Shown here one piece after another: positions 3,466-11,680 of a DNA stretch of 64,000 bases (within the stretch, counting starts at the first letter, position 1; each line of letters starts with the position of its first letter). Under the pieces are notes generated by a model. The model was not told the DNA's origin. It saw nothing but the letters and a program-made list of their open reading frames with translations, and did no database searches. The DNA lies in IMG/VR virus record IMGVR_UViG_3300031419_000579; one strand, given 5' to 3'. The translations under genes and the position numbers were made by a program. This DNA is from a virus.

Positions 3466-3689
3466 TGGCTGATTCAATTGATATCGCCCAGCAGCGAGAA
3501 GCTGAGAACCTAGCGCGCTGCCTGGCTAATACTATCTATCGCCCGATCGGCGTCAGCGCATCCTTCTGTGAAACCTGTGATGCCCCGATCCCAGAAGCCC
3601 GCCGTAAAGCGCTGCCAGGTGTGATGACCTGCGTCCACTGCCAGACCATTCAGGAACTGAAAAGCGCGCACTTTGGTAAGCGTCAGTGA
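3465..3689 (+). CDS. TraR/DksA-family C4 zinc-finger protein (P2 orf82-like)
   Basis: MADSIDIAQQRE...CETCDAPIPEARRKALPGVMTCVHCQ. Confidence 0.9.
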   Translation: MADSIDIAQQREAENLARCLANTIYRPIGVSASFCETCDAPIPEARRKALPGVMTCVHCQTIQELKSAHFGKRQ

Positions 3690-5911
3690 TCATTGACTAC
3701 GCCCACCCGTGGAATCAGCCACGGGCGGCTATCGCAAAGCCTTACATTACTTACGAAGCAAAACGCCGCCGCGCACAGATGTACGCGGCTTTGTTGCATG
3801 CGCAGGAATTAGTTGAACAGCAGCCTACTATCGTCAAGCTGGACATTAAGCGCCGCTTTAACGACCTCGATAAAACCCAGGGAACAGCCCGCGCCAATGC
3901 GTACTTAACAAAGACCTTTGTTGAGCGCACATTGCCACGTGTTGAAACCGTCAGCGCACAGTATCGCCTCGGTTAAATGAATCCCGAAACCTTTAGCCTG
4001 CTGGCGCATAATGGCGGAAAACAACAAGGTTCGGCCAGAGCGGCCGGCACGTTGTGGGAACTGATGAAACGCTATAATCGCCTGCCGGATATGGCACGCG
4101 CCGATGTGGATTTACTGGCCGGTGATATCGCCAGCTTTTTACTGGCAGAAATGGTACAGGTACATGAGCTGGTCAGTGGTGAGTCAGATTATCAGTATAC
4201 CCATCGCGTCTATATGACGGCGGCAACGATTACTCGCGAACTGGATCAGACCCCGCCATTGTGGGAAAAGGTCACATCACGATTTTTCTGCCCGGAAGAT
4301 GTCACCCCGGCGATCATGCGTATGCAGACCGAAACGTGGTGGAAAGGCCGTTTACGCCGCATTGCATCATCATGGCGTGAGCACCTGCAAATCGCCCTCG
4401 CCAATATCAGCAAAAAGCACACCCCATATGCCAGCACCATGACCGTTAATGAGTGGCGCGAACAGAAGCGCCGCACGCGCGAGTATCTCAAAGGTCTGGA
4501 GCTGGAAAACGAGGAAACCGGCGAGCGCATCAGCCTGATTGATAAATTCGACGGCAGCGTATCGAACCCGTCAATTTGCCGTGGCGAGCTGATGACCCGC
4601 AACAGTGGATTCGAAAAGATCTGCAACGAGATGGGCTTTATTGGCGAGTTTTACACTCTGACCGCACCGTCCCGCTATCACGCCACCATTAAAACCGGCC
4701 ATCGTAACCGCAAATGGAACGGTTCCAGCCCGACAGAAACGCAGCGCTATCTCAGTAACGTCTGGCAGAAAGTGCGCGCCAAGCTGCACCGTGAAGAAAT
4801 CCGCATTTTCGGTATTCGTGTTGCCGAGCCGCACCACGATGCCACACCGCACTGGCACATGCTGATGTTTATGCTGCCAGAAAATGTCGACCGCGTGCGC
4901 CAGATCCTGCGTGATTATGCTTATCAGGAGGACAGCGGCGAACTGACAACTGCCAAAGCCCGCAAGGCACGTTTTCATGCCGAAGCCATCGACCCGGAGA
5001 AAGGCAGCGCCACCGGCTATATCGCTAAATACATTTCCAAAAATATCGACGGCTATGCGCTCGACGGCGAGCTGGATGATGAAAGCGGCAAGGAGCTGAA
5101 AGAAACTGCCCCTGCCGTTTCCGCCTGGGCGGCACGCTGGCACATTCGCCAGTTCCAGTTTATCGGCGGTGCACCGGTGACGGTTTATCGTGAGCTGCGT
5201 CGCATGGCTGACAGTGAAACCGCGCATGGTCTGAGCGTTGAGTTTGCAGCGGTACATGATGCTGCTCACGGCGGCCAGTGGGCTGATTACGTCAATGCAC
5301 AGGGTGGTGCTTTTGTGCGCCGTGACGAACTGGAAGTGCGCACCTGGTATCAGGCCAGCGACGAGCTTAACCACTACGGTGAGGAAATCACGCGCATTAA
5401 AGGCGTTTACGCCACCTCTGTTGGTGATGATACGCCGATCCTGACCCGTCTTGCGCAGTGGAAGATTGTCACTAAACGCGCCGTTGATTTGGCCGTTGAC
5501 CTTCAGGACGCGTCAGCGTCCTCTCGGAGTTCTGTCAATAACTGTACGGGGCAGCAGACTGAGCCGCAGGAAATTGACTTCACAAAACCGCCGAACCGGT
5601 CAGAACGGAGACGGATATTGGCGCGGATACGCAGTAAAGAGACACCAAAAGCAGGCACAGAACCCATAGCCCATCCCGGCAACAGCGAATCACGGCAAAA
5701 GCTGCATGGAATAGTGAAAGATATATCCGGTGTGGCACTGACTGAGTCAGAGATCACCAGAATGATGATGGGTGCCAAAGTGATAGTTAATGGAAAGTCA
5801 TATTTCAGCGGCTCGGCTGGCAATCTCTACGGTGGCAGTAAGCCAGATCTGAATCCTTTGGCACGCTTTAACCAGATGGCTAAGCGAGTGATTAACGAAA
5901 AGAAAGAGTGA
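3686..5911 (+). pseudogene. A: Rolling-circle replication initiator gpA interrupted by in-frame TAA at 3974-3976 (downstream 644-aa ORF 3977-5911 intact)
   Basis: HUH motif EPHHDATPHWH, GYIAKYISKNIDG tyrosines, FQFIGG motif; 3686-3976 and 3977-5911 are in the same frame. Confidence 0.88.
5516..5548 (+). other. P2/186-type rolling-circle origin (nick site) inside gene A
   Basis: CTCGGAGTTCTGTCAATAACTGT matches the P2/186 ori consensus as I recall it. Confidence 0.75.
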
Positions 5912-6020: not shown

Positions 6021-6197
6021 ATGGGGTTAGATAAATTAAATGAGTCAATCGCACGTATACAGTTTGTCGCGGATGTCGCGCTCATCGCACAGTGCAAATC
6101 TGATGAACTACAGCTGGCTATGTCTTTGGTAAGTGACCTTGCGCGCGAGATTGATACTTCCAGACTGCAAGACGCGATTTTCTATCAGGCGGAATAG
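6021..6197 (+). CDS. Small SOS-controlled protein, probably Tum-like antirepressor (58 aa, below ORF-track cutoff)
   Basis: MGLDKLNESIARIQFVADVALIAQCKSDELQLAMSLVSDLA...; AGGAGG upstream; follows LexA box after gene A, the position of tum in 186. Confidence 0.6.
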   Translation: MGLDKLNESIARIQFVADVALIAQCKSDELQLAMSLVSDLAREIDTSRLQDAIFYQAE

Positions 6198-6241: not shown

Positions 6242-6264
6242 AGCCGCCTTACAGGGCGGCTTTT
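6242..6264 (+). terminator. Intrinsic terminator
   Basis: AGCCGCCT-taca-GGGCGGCT followed by T tract. Confidence 0.7.
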
Positions 6265-6398: not shown

Positions 6399-6417
6399 GG
6401 CGTGGCGGGGAAAGCAT
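6399..6417 (+). other. cos site (19-nt cohesive end, 186-type)
   Basis: GGCGTGGCGGGGAAAGCAT in the conserved GGGCA...TGCGCGC context. Confidence 0.9.
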
Positions 6418-6509
6418 TGCGCGCTGACTACGAAACACTTATCTTAATAGTCAGTAAGTCTTAGGCTTTATAACTTAGTATTAATCTTAGGCGTTCATTA
6501 AAGGAATAG

Positions 6510-8762
6510 ATGATGAGTAAAGATTCTCATAAATGGTCAAAAAAAGATGCTACTCCACTTAGAGAGCTTTTTCTTGATCCAAATAATTACCGTTTTGTTG
6601 ATAATGAAAGCTATCGCGTAGTACCAGTAAATAACATTACTGACTTTTCGATTCAAAAACGTACTCGGCATTTCATTGAAGGTAATCGCCAAGAAAATAT
6701 TAGAGATCTATTATCTAGCTTCAAGGCTAATGGTTTTCTCGATGTTGATATTATTCAAGTTAGAAAACTACAGGATGGTGCCTTTCTTGTATTGGAAGGA
6801 AACAGGCGCGTAACTGCTTTGAAATGCCTGCAAGAGGATCATGAAAAAGGTCTAGATATTGGAAATTTAGACCCGCAAGTATTTGGCAATGTTAAATTCG
6901 AACTCCATGAAACAGATGACATAGAAAAACATCTAATTGTCATGGGATTGAAACATATTAGTGGCAATAAAAAATGGTCAACCTTGAATCAATCTAAGTT
7001 GGTTCATGACTTCCTATTACCCTATAGGGAAAAAGATAATTATTTTTCTAAAGAAAACGAATTATGTGAATCTCTTGGCATTTCAAAAGCAAGATTAAGG
7101 TCCATGATTAGGGTATATAATTTAACCTCAGCCTACAAGCGAAGTGACTATAGTGAACAATTTGATCCTAGCCGCTATGGTATATTTGAAGAAATAATTA
7201 AGAAGCCAGCTATCAGAGAATGGTTAGACTGGAGCGATGAAAATTACGAAGCCAAAAACAAAATTAATCTTGAGAGATTGTTTTCTTGGATTTCAAAAAA
7301 TGAATATTCTTGTTCTGCAGAAGACCTCGAAGATGAAGAACCAGATGGGGATTTTTCATATAATAAAAATGATTATGAAGAACGAGAAGCAATTATAACT
7401 AAATCTTTGGAAATTCGCGAGTTGGCATTGTTTATAAATAATGAATCTGCTTTAGAAGTAATGGAGAGAGAAAGAAGCTTAGCTCGGGGACTAGCTGTTA
7501 GTGGGACAATTGATAAGCAAAATTATCAAAACGCTTTAGGAGGTTTATTTTCATCAGTAAAAGCGTTAGTTGAGATAAGAAATCACGTCAATAATGAGGA
7601 TGTTGAGTTATTAAATGATGCCAAGGAGAAATTAGCATCAATATTGCCTAAGAAAAGCAGTTTAAACATTGAGGGGGGTAACTTTAATGTTGCTTTTGAA
7701 TTTGGAAGGCCAACGCAATTTTCAGAAATTAATATAAAAAAATACAAATCATTCAAAGATTTCAATATTAAAAATCTTAATAAAATTAACATTATCGCCG
7801 GATTGAACAATAGTGGAAAAACAAGCCTTCTTGAGGCTATTTATTTATTGACGCAGCAAAATGATATTTCTTCATTCTTCAATCTGATCAAATCAAAAAA
7901 TAAAACCAATGATTTAAGTCCTTTGCTATTAAATAAGATATTCACAAAGAATATGGTTATCAATGGCATTTACAATAATGTTTTTGTTGGGGTAGAATAT
8001 AAGAAATTTGAAGCCATTGATATTGATAAAAAAGATGATTATATCGCATCTTACAATGTTACTTCTTCAGTCGATGGACAGGAATTTGCGACAACAATCC
8101 ATACTTTCGTTCATGAGCAAATGATAAGAAATAACAATTCAATTTTAAAACTTTGTCCTGCTTCAATTGAAAGCCCATATTTTTACAGTCTTGACAGTCT
8201 CGTTAGGAATTATACAAAATCAGTTGAAACAAAGTGCCAAAGGAACGGAAGTTCGGAGTTCGTTACCGCGTTAAGCTTAGTGGTAGAATTTATACGAAAA
8301 ATAGACTCCGCCATCATTGATATTAGATTTACCGATGAGGGCGAACTAAAAAGATTCATAGTTGAATCTGAGAAGAACAACTTTAGTAATTTCGACATTA
8401 CAACTTATGGCGAAGGTTTACAGCGAATATTTTACATTGCGTTAAGCTTTGCTGCATCAAAAAACGGTGTTCTATTGATTGATGAGTTCGAAACAGCAAT
8501 TCATTACTCTCTATTAGTTGAATTCACAAGTTTCGTGCAACAGCTTTCAGCAACTTTTAATGTTCAAATATTCTTAACTACTCATTCAAATGAGTGTATA
8601 TCCGCATTCGTCAACAACGGTTGCGATAACAAGATTATTTCTGGATTTCAACTTAATAATAATAATGAAAGAATAACATACAAAGAGGTAGACGGCGAGA
8701 GACTGCAATATATAATTGATAGTTTGGGGATCGATATTAGAGGAGGGAGTGATAATGAATAA
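6510..8762 (+). CDS. ParB/Srx-like N-terminal domain fused to ABC-type (AAA_15/AAA_21-like) ATPase; candidate defence protein
   Basis: LFLDPNNYRF and LVLEGNRRVTALK (ParB-like); Walker A GLNNSGKT, signature YGEGLQ, Walker B LLIDEFETAIH, H-loop FLTTHS; AT-rich. Confidence 0.85.
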   Translation: MMSKDSHKWSKKDATPLRELFLDPNNYRFVDNESYRVVPVNNITDFSIQKRTRHFIEGNRQENIRDLLSSFKANGFLDVDIIQVRKLQDGAFLVLEGNRRVTALKCLQEDHEKGLDIGNLDPQVFGNVKFELHETDDIEKHLIVMGLKHISGNKKWSTLNQSKLVHDFLLPYREKDNYFSKENELCESLGISKARLRSMIRVYNLTSAYKRSDYSEQFDPSRYGIFEEIIKKPAIREWLDWSDENYEAKNKINLERLFSWISKNEYSCSAEDLEDEEPDGDFSYNKNDYEEREAIITKSLEIRELALFINNESALEVMERERSLARGLAVSGTIDKQNYQNALGGLFSSVKALVEIRNHVNNEDVELLNDAKEKLASILPKKSSLNIEGGNFNVAFEFGRPTQFSEINIKKYKSFKDFNIKNLNKINIIAGLNNSGKTSLLEAIYLLTQQNDISSFFNLIKSKNKTNDLSPLLLNKIFTKNMVINGIYNNVFVGVEYKKFEAIDIDKKDDYIASYNVTSSVDGQEFATTIHTFVHEQMIRNNNSILKLCPASIESPYFYSLDSLVRNYTKSVETKCQRNGSSEFVTALSLVVEFIRKIDSAIIDIRFTDEGELKRFIVESEKNNFSNFDITTYGEGLQRIFYIALSFAASKNGVLLIDEFETAIHYSLLVEFTSFVQQLSATFNVQIFLTTHSNECISAFVNNGCDNKIISGFQLNNNNERITYKEVDGERLQYIIDSLGIDIRGGSDNE

Positions 8763-9588
8763 TATTACCATTGTTTTTTGTGAAGGCGGGCATGATATTG
8801 CCTTCTTAACTAGGCTGCTAATGTGGTCTGGGTTTGAGGACTATGATAAAAGAGTTGAAAAATTCCTTCCTCCTTTTAATACCCTTTTTTCCAATGAATT
8901 AAAAAAAATAAATCTCTCGGAAAGAAAACCAGGATTTGTAGGCGCATCTCACCGAGTCCCTTCAGCAGCTTTTACAAAGAATGACAATCTTGTCTTCATA
9001 CATAATTTAAATGGAGACGGTAAAGAACGTGAACGAAGGGAAGTTTTTGAAATATATAAAAAAATAAGAGGCGCCGATTCTTTTTCATCAAAATTTAACT
9101 TTAGTTATAAATTCTTATATTTTTTTGATGCGGATGATGTCGGCATAAATGTTCGCTTACAACACGTTTCTCAAGAGATAGGGTTAAATAATAACCTTAT
9201 AAATGGAAAATTGAAGCGACACGAAGGGGATACATATGGGGCTTATATTTATCATGACGCGGGAAATGGTTTAGATACAGGGGTTTTAGAAGATATTATA
9301 TCTGATCTTGTCAAGGCAAGGCATAGCGATATATTCCATGCTGCGACTCATTATCTTGCATCTAATGCCCTACCTTCTCAGCGTTGTTGTGAGTTGAGAA
9401 TTCGTAACGGACAAGAAACTTACGGGGCTGCAAATAAATTTAAAATCAAAAAATCAATAATAAGCACAATGGGTCAACTCCAGTTTTCTGGTTCCAGTAA
9501 CATTGTAGTAATCAAAAACTCTGATTTTTTTAAGTCAAACGACATAGCATCTTCGCAAGTTTGCAATGACATAGTTAATATGTTTTGA
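8755..9588 (+). CDS. TOPRIM-like protein (DUF3226/DUF4435-like), partner of the ATPase (277 aa)
   Basis: IVFCEGGHD (conserved Glu), FFDADD (DxD), TGVLEDII motif; overlaps upstream stop by 8 nt. Confidence 0.75.
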   Translation: MNNITIVFCEGGHDIAFLTRLLMWSGFEDYDKRVEKFLPPFNTLFSNELKKINLSERKPGFVGASHRVPSAAFTKNDNLVFIHNLNGDGKERERREVFEIYKKIRGADSFSSKFNFSYKFLYFFDADDVGINVRLQHVSQEIGLNNNLINGKLKRHEGDTYGAYIYHDAGNGLDTGVLEDIISDLVKARHSDIFHAATHYLASNALPSQRCCELRIRNGQETYGAANKFKIKKSIISTMGQLQFSGSSNIVVIKNSDFFKSNDIASSQVCNDIVNMF

Positions 9589-9592
9589 TTAA

Positions 9593-9621
9593 TCGCACCT
9601 TCATTTATTTTGAGGGTGCGA
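9593..9621. terminator. Hairpin between convergent cargo and portal genes
   Basis: TCGCACCTTCA-tttattt-TGAGGGTGCGA. Confidence 0.65.
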
Positions 9622-9634
9622 ACCATCTTAATTT

Positions 9635-10655
9635 TTATAAAGAATACTCACTAAAACTTAACACTTCAATGTTTAACCAATAGTTCATCTCCTTCATCCG
9701 CTCCTGCAGTGGCGTCAGCTCATTCCTAACAAACACCTCCGCCGCTTTGATCGCATCCCCAAAGCCACCCGAGTTATCAGGAATAATCCCCATCATCTGT
9801 GGCGGCACGCGATGCGCACTCAGTAAATCGTCGCGGCTAGCCTTCTTAATATTAAAGAAATCATCCTTAGTCGCCACCTCACTCAATGGGACGATCTTAA
9901 TCCCATCCGGCTTACCATTCGGCGCATACATAAACAGATTGCGAAAGTTTCCCAGCCCTTTAGTATCACGCATCGCCTCACGCATACGGTCGATATCGGT
10001 ACTGCTTTGCGCCGCATCGGTCATATACAGGATGTAACCGGCGTGCGCGCCGTTCTGGTAATACTTACGGCGGAACAACGTCGCCGCCTCATTCAGCCAG
10101 GCAGAATTAAGCGCGCTGAGATATTCCGGCAGGCCGTACAGCTCCTGGTTAATATCAGGCTCAACAAGATGGAACACGCTACCCGGCTCAAAGCGATGCG
10201 CCTCTTTCCAGTTCTGCACAAACCAGTAAACGCCCTCTTCTACTCCGCGCCGGGTGTATTTCGCCGGAACACACTCCAGCCGCATCGGCTCACCGAGCGC
10301 ATTCTTACGCAGCTCCAGAAAAGCATTACCAAATACCAGATAATCCAGCGCAAATTTACTGAACTCCTGCTGACTCAGCATCGGATGCGGGATAAAGGTC
10401 GAGGCCAGAATATTGCGCTTCACATAAATTGGCGAGCTGTGATGCACCGCCGAGCAGGCTGCGCGCCAGCCCGTCAAAGCTGACCGGTGGCTCATACCAG
10501 CGGCCATTGTGGATGCACTCGGCGTAATCCAGAATTTCCCGCTTATCGAGTACCGGCGTGGCGTCGCCAAAGCTGAACGCCTGCGCGGCTGCCGCTGGCT
10601 GCTGTACCGGCTCGTTTTTGGTGGCGAATGCCTTGCGGCCTCTGCGCTTGCTCAT
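9635..10655 (-). pseudogene. Q: P2 portal gpQ with frameshift near 10455-10462
   Basis: N-term MSKRRGRK...AFSFGDATPVLDKREILDY...WYEPPVSFDGLARSL in one frame; AVHHSSPIYVKRNIL...FRRKYYQNGAHAG in another. Confidence 0.9.
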
Positions 10656-11224
10656 TAGTAAAACTCCACAAAGTTAGGACCCATTCCACCGTTAGCGGCG
10701 GTCAGCGGTTCGTTAAGTAAGGCGTGCATAATCGCTCAGGCGACGTCGGCGTGGCTGGCGTCCTCGCTGCGGCTGGCTTCACAGGTGGAACGGTTGCCGC
10801 TGGCGGTCATGGTTTTGCGGATCGCCATAAACGACTGCGTGATATCGGTGTGGCCTGCGTCATACTCCAGGCGGCCGCTGCCAATGGTGTCTTTCACCTT
10901 CAGCACCATCGCGGTTTTGATTTCCGGGGTGTAACGGATTTCACGCGCCGCCGGGAAGAACTGCCGCACCAGTTGAAATACGCCCTGGCCGATGCCGGTG
11001 GCGTCCACGCCGATATATTCGGTGTGATACTTCTCGGTCAGCTGTTTAATCGACTGCGCCTGTGCGGCAAAGTCCATGCCGCGCCACTGGTAGCGCTCCA
11101 GCACGCGGAACTTGCCACCGGCCACCACCGGCGGCGCGAGCACCGCACAACCAGCGCTGTCGCCGGTGTGTGACGGGTCATAACCGATCCATACCGGGCG
11201 ATAGTCAAATGGCCGCAGCGCATA
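10655..11224 (-). pseudogene. P: 3' remnant of P2 terminase ATPase subunit gpP, with TGA at 10736-10738
   Basis: RPVWIGYDPSHTGDSAGC...GVDATGIGQGV...SHADVA*AIMHALLNEPL; stop overlaps Q start. Confidence 0.9.
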
Positions 11225-11630
11225 ACCGAACACGTTTACCACAGAGCTGTAGATATCGCTGCAAACGCCAGATCACTCTTTAACGTCCTCCAGCAGAGAG
11301 CCATGATGCCATGAAAAGGCGTTTTTTATCCCGCCTCTCATCTGCCACATCCATCGCGCCGAGGCACTGCCCGGTTGGCGTAATTCCCAGTTTGGTATGA
11401 GCGTCGACCGCTGAGCGAACCCATTCATTCAGGAGCAGCAAATCCTCAGCCGATGCTGAGTAATTGAGGTCGAGTTCCTGCGCCACCATCACGGGATTAT
11501 CGATTTTGGCGCACTCTTTCTGGTACCAGGCGTCGTCCTTACGCGGATCGCTTCGCCAGTGGAACGTAAACACCGGAATGCGCCCGCCGTGGCGTTTCTG
11601 CGCGAAAGGGTTAGCCATGCCGTTGACAGA
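11225..11630 (-). pseudogene. terL: Internal fragment of a non-P2 (lambdoid/P22-like) terminase large subunit
   Basis: [15 protein letters not shown]...[11 protein letters not shown]...[12 protein letters not shown]...LGAMDVADE, then frameshift to [10 protein letters not shown]...E*SGVCSDIYSSV. Confidence 0.8.
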
Positions 11631-11680
11631 TGACCAGATGACCAGATGACCAGATGACCAGATGACCAGATGACCAGATG
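11627..11680. repeat. 8-bp tandem repeat (CAGATGAC) x6 plus a 6-nt partial copy
   Basis: Read directly; all full units perfect. Confidence 0.97.

Follow-up and report, generated by a model that had tools for sequence, protein, structure and literature searches.

A candidate anti-phage gene pair of PDC-M38 type, predicted to couple a ParB-like/ABC ATPase fusion to a Toprim nuclease, in the cargo hotspot of a decayed P2-like prophage

Two AT-rich genes lie among broken phage genes in a 64,000-nucleotide viral DNA stretch (IMG/VR record IMGVR_UViG_3300031419_000579; hereafter the window). An earlier note, made from the nucleotide letters alone, had proposed them as a candidate new two-gene anti-phage system carried by a P2-like phage. 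This raises three questions: what the genes encode, whether the pair is new, and what it may do. The following features define its surroundings.

3686-5911, + strand: replication gene A, interrupted (Pfam Phage_GPA; residues 4-741 of A of Erwinia phage ENT90 in a single frame by tblastn)
6399-6417, + strand: cohesive-end (cos) sequence of the P2-like prophage, bounding the cargo slot on the left (pattern match; ENT90 block)
6513-9588, + strand: cassette formed by genes 1 and 2
9593-9621, no strand assigned: hairpin between the convergent gene 2 and Q, a possible bidirectional terminator (folding)
9635-10655, - strand: portal gene Q, frameshifted (Pfam Phage_portal; tblastn against ENT90)
10658-11224, - strand: terminase gene P, reduced to its C-terminal third (Pfam Terminase_6C)

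The cos site, GGCGTGGCGGGGAAAGCAT, shows two mismatches to the P2 cos sequence, and 0.01 matches to this pattern are expected by chance. It lies inside a 63-bp block that shares 92% identity with the cos region of ENT90 and is the sole ENT90 homology between A and Q; a 3.2-kb insert is missing from the ENT90 backbone. As the earlier note had proposed, A, Q, and P are all broken. Gene A contains an in-frame stop visible in the translation (3974-3976), Q has one frameshift near 10454 that separates residues 1-69 from residues 71-342, matched in a different frame, and only residues 399-587 of ENT90 P were matched by tblastn. The same search with ENT90 proteins gave no match for the scaffold gene O. 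The order A, cos, cassette, and Q corresponds to the A-to-portal slot beside cos, as claimed before, an interval defined as defence hotspot #1 of P2 by Vassallo et al. 2022 (PMC9519451). The cassette is cargo in this hotspot of a decayed P2-like prophage.

Gene 1 begins at one of two adjacent ATGs (6510 or 6513, giving 750 or 749 amino acids), ends at 8762, and has an AAGGA ribosome-binding site upstream. Gene 2, located downstream on the same strand, extends from an ATG at 8755 to 9588 (277 amino acids) and is preceded by a GGAGGGAG site. Its start overlaps the stop of gene 1 by 8 nt. Both genes are intact and translationally coupled. The GC content is 0.29-0.35 across 6501-9500 compared with about 0.55-0.60 in the flanking phage genes, in agreement with the initial description of two intact, overlapping, AT-rich genes between cos and portal. 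No promoter was identified with confidence for the cassette. The hairpin that follows it has a folding energy of -19.5 kcal/mol on the + strand (z -5.8) and -16.6 kcal/mol on the - strand (z -4.6). It had been described as a terminator; the hairpin itself stands, but no T-run follows it and a consensus terminator scan did not call it, so that a bidirectional terminator is possible, a role plausible rather than shown.

The two proteins have the following organization.

6513-8762, + strand: gene 1 (PDC-M38A type), ParB-like module and ABC ATPase (ORF; full-length match to PADLOC PDLC04607)
6546-6977, + strand: ParB-like nucleotide-binding N-domain, aa 12-155 (Foldseek; Pfam ParB_N in the family)
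6981-7292, + strand: helical region resembling an HTH DNA-binding domain, aa 157-260 (AF2 model helices 157-259; Foldseek)
7308-7373, + strand: acidic linker, predicted disordered, aa 266-287 (pLDDT <50 at 266-269 and 277-287)
7374-7646, + strand: helical connector, last part of the ParB-like module, aa 288-378 (model helices 298-377)
7710-8747, + strand: ABC ATPase of OLD/AbiLi/AriA type, aa 400-745 (Pfam, PADLOC)
8755-9588, + strand: gene 2 (PDC-M38B type), DUF3226-family Toprim-like predicted nuclease, 277 aa (PADLOC PDLC04613; AF2; structural search)

Gene 1, for which we found >1000 full-length homologs, joins a complete ParB-like module to an AbiLi/AriA-like ABC ATPase in one protein. 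The best 27 Foldseek hits of its N-terminal part are all ParB, Noc, KorB, or Spo0J proteins (E 1e-4, prob 1.0). The alignments run over about 250 columns, against ParB/Noc/KorB chains that are C-terminally truncated, and take in the DNA-binding domain as well as the N-domain. The model thus suggests that the HTH-like region is the equivalent of the ParB central domain and a putative DNA binder. An N-terminal ParB/Srx domain had been proposed previously. The ParB assignment is upheld, but its extent was underestimated, as the whole module of ~375 aa comprises the N-domain, the HTH-like domain, and the connector. The acidic linker is variable or missing in relatives. The N-domain motifs LDPNNYRF (6573-6596), EGNRR (6795-6809), and MGLKHISGNKKW (6942-6977) are invariant, and EGNRR aligns with the GERR (GxxR) nucleotide-binding motif of Noc. 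Pfam ParB_N is matched by 19 of 36 family members; the match of gene 1 itself is weak (E 0.047), as are its matches to PDB sequences (E 0.2-0.9). The ParB box III catalytic motif was not found in the family, the PDB alignments having stopped short of this region, and its place at the equivalent helix is occupied by an unrelated invariant family motif, MGLKHxSGxKxW. With these weak sequence matches and no box III found, CTP binding or hydrolysis by gene 1 is no more than a possibility.

The C-terminal half is, as claimed, a complete ABC ATPase, with Pfam matches to AAA_21 (3e-17) and AAA_15 (1e-13). The Walker A (7800-7823), signature-like YGEGLQR (8406-8426), Walker B (8472-8492), and H-loop TTHS (8577-8588) motifs are all present and invariant in the family. 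AbiLi, AriA, and NsnB are the ATPases of proven defence systems. The kinship with such ABC-ATPase/Toprim systems suggested at the outset is supported by PADLOC matches to AbiLi (PDLC02336, 4.5e-35, profile positions 4-334 of 340), to two AriA models (1.6e-22 and 8.6e-17), and to NsnB (4.5e-19, profile positions 3-307 of 345; the Pfam search reported no DUF3696, the C-terminal domain of NsnB). The AriA models ranked well below PDC-M38A and AbiLi. By these matches, the ATPase of gene 1 appears to be related to AriA by domain and not to belong to the same family.

The AF2 model of gene 2 (pLDDT 90.6) is best matched by the DUF3226 structure 2p62 (Z 16.8, 216 residues aligned). Next come the Toprim domains of OLD (6nk8_B, Z 8.7, 167 residues aligned), GajA (8u7i_A, residues 372-572, Z 7.9), and Thermus OLD (6p74_A, Z 7.9); 2i5r, a small Toprim protein, reached Z 6.0. 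These values of 6.0-8.7 are near the stated noise ceiling of the search (7-8), but a single family accounts for all the leading matches outside DUF3226. Residue E10 of the CEG motif (8779-8787) follows strand 3-9, and the DxD motif (D125 and D127, 9127-9135) ends strand 117-125, corresponding to Toprim strands 1 and 3; the three residues are invariant in all 42 aligned sequences. Pfam DUF3226 (PF11536) is matched by 25 of these 42 homologs (best 1.9e-12), and gene 2 itself falls below its threshold and matches no Toprim family by sequence (Pfam, E <= 0.1). The model thus points to a DUF3226-family protein with an OLD-type Toprim fold, a predicted nuclease, in line with the Toprim-type effector proposed earlier. 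All motifs originally quoted were found (LDPNNYRF, EGNRR, GLNNSGKT, YGEG, IDEFE, and TTHS in gene 1; CEG..D and DAD in gene 2), and they are invariant or nearly so across their respective families.

In each of the eight homolog contexts that we read, the partner gene lies directly downstream on the same strand. It encodes 237 aa in the Klebsiella locus and 277-294 aa in the other seven. The surroundings are of mobile or defence type. The pair was found after psu/delta in a P4-like satellite, in a Vibrio prophage cargo site, and in islands of Salmonella and Pantoea that also carry integrases, relaxases, and a TIR protein. In Clostridium its locus lies close to a PLD-SNF2-DUF3427 protein, another copy immediately follows a type I HsdR gene, and the Pectobacterium copy is a chromosomal insert without adjoining phage or satellite genes except a transposase fragment. 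Only the two ORFs are shared with Pectobacterium (6497-9589 of the window, 75.6% nucleotide identity). With dN of 0.10 and 0.15 and saturated dS, both genes are under purifying selection, while the neighbouring phage genes are broken. The distribution of the family is patchy and horizontally mobile across phyla.

The earlier note had not recognised this fused architecture as a described system. However, both proteins are matched over their full length by PADLOC-DB v2 models of PDC-M38. Gene 1 matches PDLC04607 (PDC-M38A) from residue 6 to 745 (E 3.2e-298, 989 bits, positions 5-715 of 715), a model of exactly the ParB-ATPase fusion, and gene 2 matches PDLC04613 (PDC-M38B; E 2.3e-108, 359.9 bits, profile positions 1-277 of 278) and other PADLOC models only when these are also PDC-M38B. 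Gene order and adjacency are the same, with no structural difference, although PDC-M38 also takes in short ATPase-only A variants (models of ~370 positions) beside the ParB-fused form. By sequence, the cassette is thus assigned to PDC-M38 as a catalogued variant of the ABC-ATPase/Toprim defence class. The source study lists 145 computational PDC candidates, among them PDC-M38, which was originally picked because it is embedded in defence systems and comprises two cassette clusters in the supplement (Payne et al. 2024, bioRxiv 10.1101/2024.01.29.577857). HEC-01, a related ATPase and Toprim candidate, gave no defence in the assays of the same study. In the literature we found PDC-M38 as a table entry, and our search returned no text discussing it or its domains. 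As PADLOC already lists PDC-M38, the cassette is mechanistically interesting but not a new discovery; most of the novelty is gone, and PDC-M38 is still only a computational candidate.

Several characterized systems share parts of this organization. [quoted passage not shown] The AbiLi profile is matched end to end, but by the ATPase half of gene 1 only; AbiLi lacks a ParB-like module, and gene 2, a DUF3226 protein, has no AbiLii match in PADLOC. PARIS likewise encodes its Toprim effector apart from an OLD-type ABC ATPase, and it too occurs in P2/P4 hotspots. AriA, however, lacks the ParB module, gene 2 has no AriB/DUF4435 match (Pfam and PADLOC, E <= 0.1), and neither the Ocr trigger nor the tRNA substrate of PARIS is implied for the cassette. 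Menshen (NsnA, NsnB, and NsnC) comprises a ParB-superfamily sensor with a DNA-binding domain, an OLD-ABC ATPase, and a nuclease effector that has a Toprim fold in some variants (PMC12065111), the same sensor-ATPase-nuclease logic as we propose here. It has three genes with a separate NsnA, whereas the cassette has two, with the sensor fused to the ATPase, and the ParB domain of NsnA is DUF262, whereas that of gene 1 is of the ParB_N/PD-lambda-5_A type. The N-terminal half of gene 1 matched only PDC-M38A and PD-Lambda-5_A in PADLOC, with no NsnA model among the matches, and gene 2 had no PADLOC match to NsnC (inactive PIN domain and nuclease). OLD and Gabija GajA belong to the same broad ABC ATPase and Toprim families but carry both in one polypeptide, whereas here they are encoded by separate genes and the ATPase bears a ParB-like module. 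Finally, PD-lambda-5 and the pairs of ParB-like and Mrr proteins lack an ABC ATPase, and their nuclease is of the PD-(D/E)xK type. The ParB-like module of the Mrr pairs is homologous to that of gene 1, and PD-Lambda-5_A matches the N-domain at about 1e-9 over only about 100 residues. PD-lambda-5 is described as a compacted RM+Abi system with methyltransferase as its top domain label (Vassallo et al. 2022, PMC9519451).

We consider that the cassette is probably a functional copy of PDC-M38, a two-gene ABC-ATPase and Toprim anti-phage system carried as cargo in the P2 cos-to-portal hotspot. With gene anatomy, folds, conserved motifs, strict pairing, and mobile or defence-type contexts observed as above, we infer an anti-phage activity, a complex of the two products (A and B), and its trigger, ligand, and substrate. 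Protein A would form an ATPase oligomer that binds protein B. Its ParB-like module would bind DNA as an infection sensor, probably gated by a nucleotide in the EGNRR pocket, and the ABC ATPase would turn DNA sensing into a conformational change that switches on or releases the Toprim nuclease B. Glu10, Asp125, and Asp127 of B would then hold the metal for cleavage of nucleic acid. As a substrate, DNA is somewhat more likely, as the nearest folds of B are those of the DNA nucleases OLD and GajA; by analogy with PARIS, tRNA cleavage may be envisaged as a somewhat less likely alternative. Complex prediction gave A-B a score of 0.44 compared with 0.00 for the best control, with an interface agreement of 89-97% over three runs. 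Among the solved complexes of the calibration 58 of 80 reached the mark, as did 2 of 110 mismatched pairs; scores <=0.60 included only 7 of the 80 solved complexes and both mismatches, a range more often wrong without a good prior. The predicted A-B interface thus lends weak support to this complex.

The same gene pair could instead be a toxin-antitoxin system acting by abortive infection as in PARIS, a reading that we judge unlikely. The ATPase oligomer would sequester the Toprim protein as a latent toxin until a phage protein, and not DNA, frees it; the freed nuclease would cut host tRNA and stop growth, and the ParB-like module would serve autoregulation or offer the trigger a decoy or a surface to bind. 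A sequestered effector would agree with the order and translational coupling of the genes and with the weak predicted A-B interface, the ATPase matches AriA (1.6e-22) and AbiLi (4.5e-35), both from abortive systems, and PARIS is itself found in P2/P4 hotspots (PMC13064643, PMC12065111). However, besides the missing PADLOC matches of gene 2 to AriB and AbiLii at E <= 0.1, AriB is only marginal in Foldseek (8v46_D, E 0.06, TM 0.20) and is not among the best 50 of the wide structural search, led by the DNA nucleases OLD and GajA. A protein trigger would moreover leave unexplained an invariant ParB-type module that is common to Mrr-type DNA nuclease pairs.

The mobility of the pair raises another possibility, namely that it serves stabilization or competition between elements rather than host defence, as an addiction cassette or as a weapon against rival elements such as plasmids or helper phages, with the ParB-like part recognizing foreign partition sites or DNA ends. 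We regard this as improbable. It would agree with the location of the pair on a prophage, a P4-like satellite, and mobilisable islands with relaxases, with a cassette that outlives its decayed prophage, and with the role of ParB-superfamily proteins in conjugative plasmid conflict (Maindola et al. 2014, cited in PMC10853773). On the other hand, the Pectobacterium copy is chromosomal, with no adjoining phage or satellite genes beyond the transposase fragment, one copy follows a type I restriction gene, PDC-M38 was first picked as embedded in defence systems, and anti-phage and anti-element roles can coexist. A housekeeping or regulatory role in DNA partition, repair, or transcription control, with a coincidental location, is already disfavoured and seems scarcely credible. 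Relatives such as ParB, KorB, and Noc are indeed partition and regulatory proteins, and ABC ATPases of the SMC/RecF/Rad50 type, to which gene 1 has weak NCBIfam matches in the P-loop only, act in repair. These matches, however, span ~45 residues around Walker A and are far below the cut-offs; there is no ParA partner, and a centromere-type function is not expected in an integrated, decayed prophage. The pair is, in addition, patchy and horizontally mobile across phyla, and here an AT-rich foreign cargo in which gene 1 is strictly coupled to a partner with a nuclease fold.

To return to the anti-phage reading, a new point concerns its proposed sensor. The whole ParB-like module (about 370-375 aa) is also encoded as a free-standing protein, with a gene for an Mrr-type nuclease next to it downstream in all five contexts checked, and therefore seems to behave as a portable sensor. 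These free-standing relatives span positions 8-362 of the 715 of PDLC04607. The partners of Mrr_cat nucleases match the gene 1 module with E values of 1e-24 to 1e-36 and share with it the motifs LDPxNxR, EGNRR, and HxxGxKxW. We tentatively propose, as a possibility that we hold with some doubt, that the module is a portable sensor of invading DNA, a nucleotide-gated clamp of ParB/KorB type that evolution has mounted on two or more unrelated effector arms. It would join Mrr-type PD-(D/E)xK nucleases directly and DUF3226 Toprim nucleases through its fusion to an ABC ATPase. If this is true, two switches placed in series in one polypeptide, one of ParB type and one an ABC ATPase, would license the nuclease, and PDC-M38 would be the first defence system of this kind.

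The two proteins of the cassette belong to a family that has already been catalogued. Gene 1 is matched over its full length (989 bits) by a 715-position model of the same fused protein in PADLOC-DB v2, and gene 2, also over its full length (360 bits), by a 278-position partner model; both models belong to the PADLOC candidate system PDC-M38. The earlier note had described the fused architecture as unrecognised. This claim fails because the family is PADLOC's PDC-M38, and the copy in the window brings no new architecture. PDC-M38 is one of 145 "phage defence candidates" drawn from genes that lie inside BREX, DISARM, type I RM and Hma systems, and stated by its authors to be untested (Payne et al. 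2024). In the supplement of that study, two cassette clusters are placed under PDC-M38. A search by terms of comparative papers on Menshen, Dnd, BREX and lactococcal Abi systems found neither the fusion nor a ParB-ATPase. A literature search found no text mention of PDC-M38 or DUF3226; a description is possible in the 2020 work of Krishnan et al., reportedly a classification of ABC ATPases that may already describe ParB-ABC ATPase fusions.

ORF calling and motif checks found both genes where they had been placed. Gene 1 residues are numbered from the ATG at 6513 (749 aa), and all motif coordinates were checked.

Features of the cassette
6399–6417: cos sequence GGCGTGGCGGGGAAAGCAT, by pattern match
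6510/6513–8762, plus strand: gene 1, with two adjacent ATGs (750 or 749 aa), by ORF calling
8755–9588, plus strand: gene 2
Gene 1, aa 266–287: acidic disordered linker, from the structure model
Gene 1, aa 288–378: helical connector following the linker, from the structure model

The ORF listing of gene 2 begins at a TTG (8716). Its true start is the ATG at 8755, preceded by a ribosome-binding site, GGAGGGAG, at a distance of 7 nt. This start gives a protein of 277 aa, a length matching that of the homologs, and an 8-nt overlap with the gene 1 stop. The GC content of the cassette block is 0.29–0.35, against about 0.55–0.60 in the adjacent phage genes. RNA folding predicts a strong hairpin at 9593–9621, between gene 2 and the convergent portal gene, and a consensus terminator scan called no site after gene 2; the hairpin proposed earlier was recovered by folding, and a role as terminator is plausible. 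The cassette is an intact, well-bounded copy of about 3.2 kb that is easy to clone.

Fragments of replication protein A, portal and terminase genes were detected around the cassette with Pfam. According to protein A, the nearest sequenced phage is the P2-like peduovirus Erwinia phage ENT90, and the state of the flanking genes was judged by mapping ENT90 proteins onto the window.

Flanking prophage genes
Gene A: in-frame stop at 3974–3976 (nonsense codon), otherwise a single-frame alignment to ENT90
Gene Q: single frameshift near 10454
Gene P, 10658–11224: last third alone remains, ENT90 residues 399–587

The nonsense codon in A, the frameshift in Q and the remnant of P therefore bear out the earlier description of an intact cassette between broken flanks. 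In the first 20 kb of the window, the ENT90 scaffold protein O has no match. This prophage remnant has lost core genes of its own and kept the cassette. ENT90 backbone homology stops just past cos (6424) and restarts within Q, and the stretch between these points measures about 190 bp in ENT90 versus 3.2 kb in the window. This gap indicates that the cassette fills a slot for cargo that lies between cos and the Q gene end. The slot lies, as had been proposed, in the interval from the replication endonuclease to the portal gene, which is P2 defence hotspot #1 (Vassallo et al., PMC9519451). Just past the P remnant, at 11627–11680, there is a perfect tandem repeat of the 8-bp unit CAGATGAC (6.8 copies), to which two overlapping ORFs owe their odd GHLVIWSS repeats; it may mark where the prophage suffered a deletion. 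Between gene A and cos lies a 58-aa ORF (6021–6197), followed by a terminator-like hairpin with a T-run (6242–6261). At the equivalent position ENT90 encodes a "putative prophage protein" of 80 aa, for which tblastn found no match in the window.

The C-terminal half of gene 1 (aa ~400–745) is a complete ABC ATPase matching Pfam AAA_21 and AAA_15, in agreement with the motif-based assignment. Walker A, a signature-like YGEGLQR, Walker B and the H-loop are all invariant across the family. Among PADLOC models, this half matches AbiLi over the whole profile (4.5e-35), AriA (1.6e-22) and NsnB (4.5e-19).

The N-terminal half (model pLDDT 78.8) has a ParB-like fold. The 27 top-ranking Foldseek matches are to ParB, Noc, KorB or Spo0J without exception (prob 1.0), in alignments of ~250 columns that cover the nucleotide-binding N-domain and the HTH DNA-binding domain. 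At the sequence level, weak but consistent signals point to the same assignment. Pfam ParB_N is matched by 19 of 36 family members, NCBIfam parB_part at 4e-5, and in the family profile the invariant EGNRR aligns to the GERR motif of Noc. A profile of the shorter N-domain gave weak matches to Noc, SbnI and PadC in the PDB (E 0.2–0.9). PDB searches with profiles of the 400-residue N-terminal part and of gene 2 returned nothing meaningful, matches to PDE10A and Cse2 being set aside as chance. ParB box III was not found in the gene 1 family, which has its own invariant motif, MGLKHxSGxKxW, instead; we rate nucleotide binding by this module as plausible. The ParB-like domain of the earlier note is borne out by the fold; the module may bind CTP, as suggested there, and may hydrolyse it.

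Gene 2 itself has no Pfam match; among its 42 aligned homologs, 25 match DUF3226. Modelling gave a confident structure (pLDDT 90.6). In an all-against-representatives search, the best structural match was the DUF3226 structure 2p62 (Z 16.8). Next in rank came three Toprim regions, those of Burkholderia OLD (Z 8.7), GajA (Z 7.9) and Thermus OLD (Z 7.9); a small Toprim protein, retron Eco2 and DnaG ranked lower. The Toprim hallmarks are invariant and in their canonical places: Glu10 follows strand 1 and Asp125-x-Asp127 follows strand 3, which supports the Toprim-type reading of gene 2. Further invariant residues (H83, N84, D88, E179, D180, K233 and S234) suggest that the active site is extended.

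Full-length homologs of gene 1 (720–750 aa) number more than 1000 and occur in Enterobacterales, Vibrio, Aeromonas, Shewanella, Campylobacterota, Clostridium and candidate phyla. The 74 homologs of gene 2 are almost all 266–300 aa long. In all eight contexts examined, a partner gene comes directly downstream on the same strand; in most of them the two genes overlap or are separated by a few bases.

Genomic contexts of the gene pair
Klebsiella P4-like satellite: directly after psu and delta, partner called at only 237 aa
Vibrio cholerae prophage: between umuDC-like genes and lysis genes
Pectobacterium: in a chromosomal insert
Salmonella and Pantoea islands: with integrases, relaxases, a TIR protein and an Mrr-like gene
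Clostridium locus: near a resolvase and a PLD-SNF2-DUF3427 protein
Metagenomic contig: directly after a type I HsdR gene

The short partner gene of the Klebsiella pneumoniae satellite (homologue locus L003, 10243–10956), compared with the usual length of about 280 aa, may be truncated or broken. The Pantoea island (locus L010, 18837–20241) carries a second, short AAA_21 ATPase of 370 aa followed by another gene, which may form an unfused ATPase-plus-partner system of the same class. The DNA common to the window and Pectobacterium is limited to the two ORFs (window 6497–9589; 75.6% nucleotide identity), which makes the gene pair by itself the portable unit. Between these copies, dN is 0.10 and 0.15 for the two genes and dS is saturated, so that no dN/dS ratio could be computed for gene 1; judged from the low dN only, the pair is under purifying selection. 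Searches of 5,426 E. coli genomes and 50,697 phage records found no near-identical DNA, and a protein search of these phage records gave a sole match at 16%, on ATPase motifs. The cassette therefore does not derive from a sequenced phage of that set. Context and homology support well its reading as a defence candidate.

A search with gene 1 aa 1–290 against 1.84 billion representatives matched 904 proteins, which include the fused form (~700–745 aa) and a large class of 355–395 aa comprising the whole module without the ATPase. This free-standing form spans positions 8–362 of the 715 of the PADLOC profile and has in common with the fused form the invariant LDPxNxR, EGNRR and HxxGxKxW motifs and several tryptophans.

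Pairs of ParB-like (~365–393 aa) and Mrr_cat genes at homologue loci
L013, 1–2018
L014, 6001–7867
L015, 302–2285
L018, 6001–8054
L019, 170–2136

In all five contexts examined the gene after the free-standing ParB-like gene encodes an Mrr_cat (PD-(D/E)xK) nuclease; it overlaps the ParB-like gene in four and starts 17 bp downstream in the fifth. One pair adjoins a CBASS operon, and another lies in a phage-like region and is followed by a Dam-type methyltransferase. To PADLOC such a pair is no known system; it gives only partial PDC-M38A and PD-Lambda-5_A matches. The N-domain of gene 1 likewise matches PD-Lambda-5_A models (about 1e-9); PD-lambda-5, a validated system, has been described as a compacted RM+Abi (PMC9519451). 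An unfused three-gene ancestor, with a ParB-like gene, a separate ATPase gene and a DUF3226 gene, was rejected, as the partners in 5/5 contexts are Mrr_cat nucleases. What is new is that Mrr-paired ParB-like proteins are directly homologous to the N-terminal half of PDC-M38A. From this module-wide homology, gene 1 reads as an entire ParB-like protein of sensor type to which an AbiLi-like ATPase is attached.

Beyond anatomy, folds, conservation and context, we infer a sensor-transducer-effector chain as the best-supported mechanism. The ParB-like module would bind DNA, probably gated by nucleotide at the EGNRR pocket, the ABC ATPase would transduce its signal, and the Toprim protein would cut. 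Complex prediction for gene 1 aa 288–749 with gene 2 scored 0.44 versus 0.00 for the best control, in a range (0.60 or less) where, unless the prior is good, a score is wrong more often than right. In the calibration, 58 of 80 solved complexes and 2 of 110 mismatched pairs reached the mark. The runs agree on the interface at 89–97%, and the modelling weakly suggests a complex of the two proteins. The numbering of the printed chain 1 interface residues (426, 437–455) is ambiguous: counted along the 462-residue fragment they correspond to the C-terminal helix (about aa 713–742 of gene 1), and counted along full-length gene 1 to the helix after Walker A; we rely on neither reading. As nuclease substrate, DNA is favoured over the alternative of a PARIS-like course, in which a protein trigger would be followed by tRNA cleavage, because the nearest folds of gene 2 are DNA nucleases and the ParB-like module otherwise partners DNA nucleases.

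ABC-ATPase-plus-Toprim systems, such as OLD, Gabija, PARIS and AbiL, are a major class of bacterial immunity, and to our knowledge how their ATPase senses infection is known for PARIS alone. Relative to the experimentally known systems, the cassette is a variant of this class in which a ParB-type sensor is fused to the ATPase and the Toprim protein is of DUF3226 type. A recognisable DNA-binding, probably nucleotide-gated ParB-type module on the ATPase makes the sensing step directly testable by point mutation of EGNRR, of the Walker motifs and of the acidic residues of the Toprim protein. The PDC-M38 candidate family is widespread and mechanistically tractable, and the window holds a clean and intact copy. 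The sensor common to PDC-M38 and the Mrr-type pairs links two widespread, uncharacterised candidate defence families.
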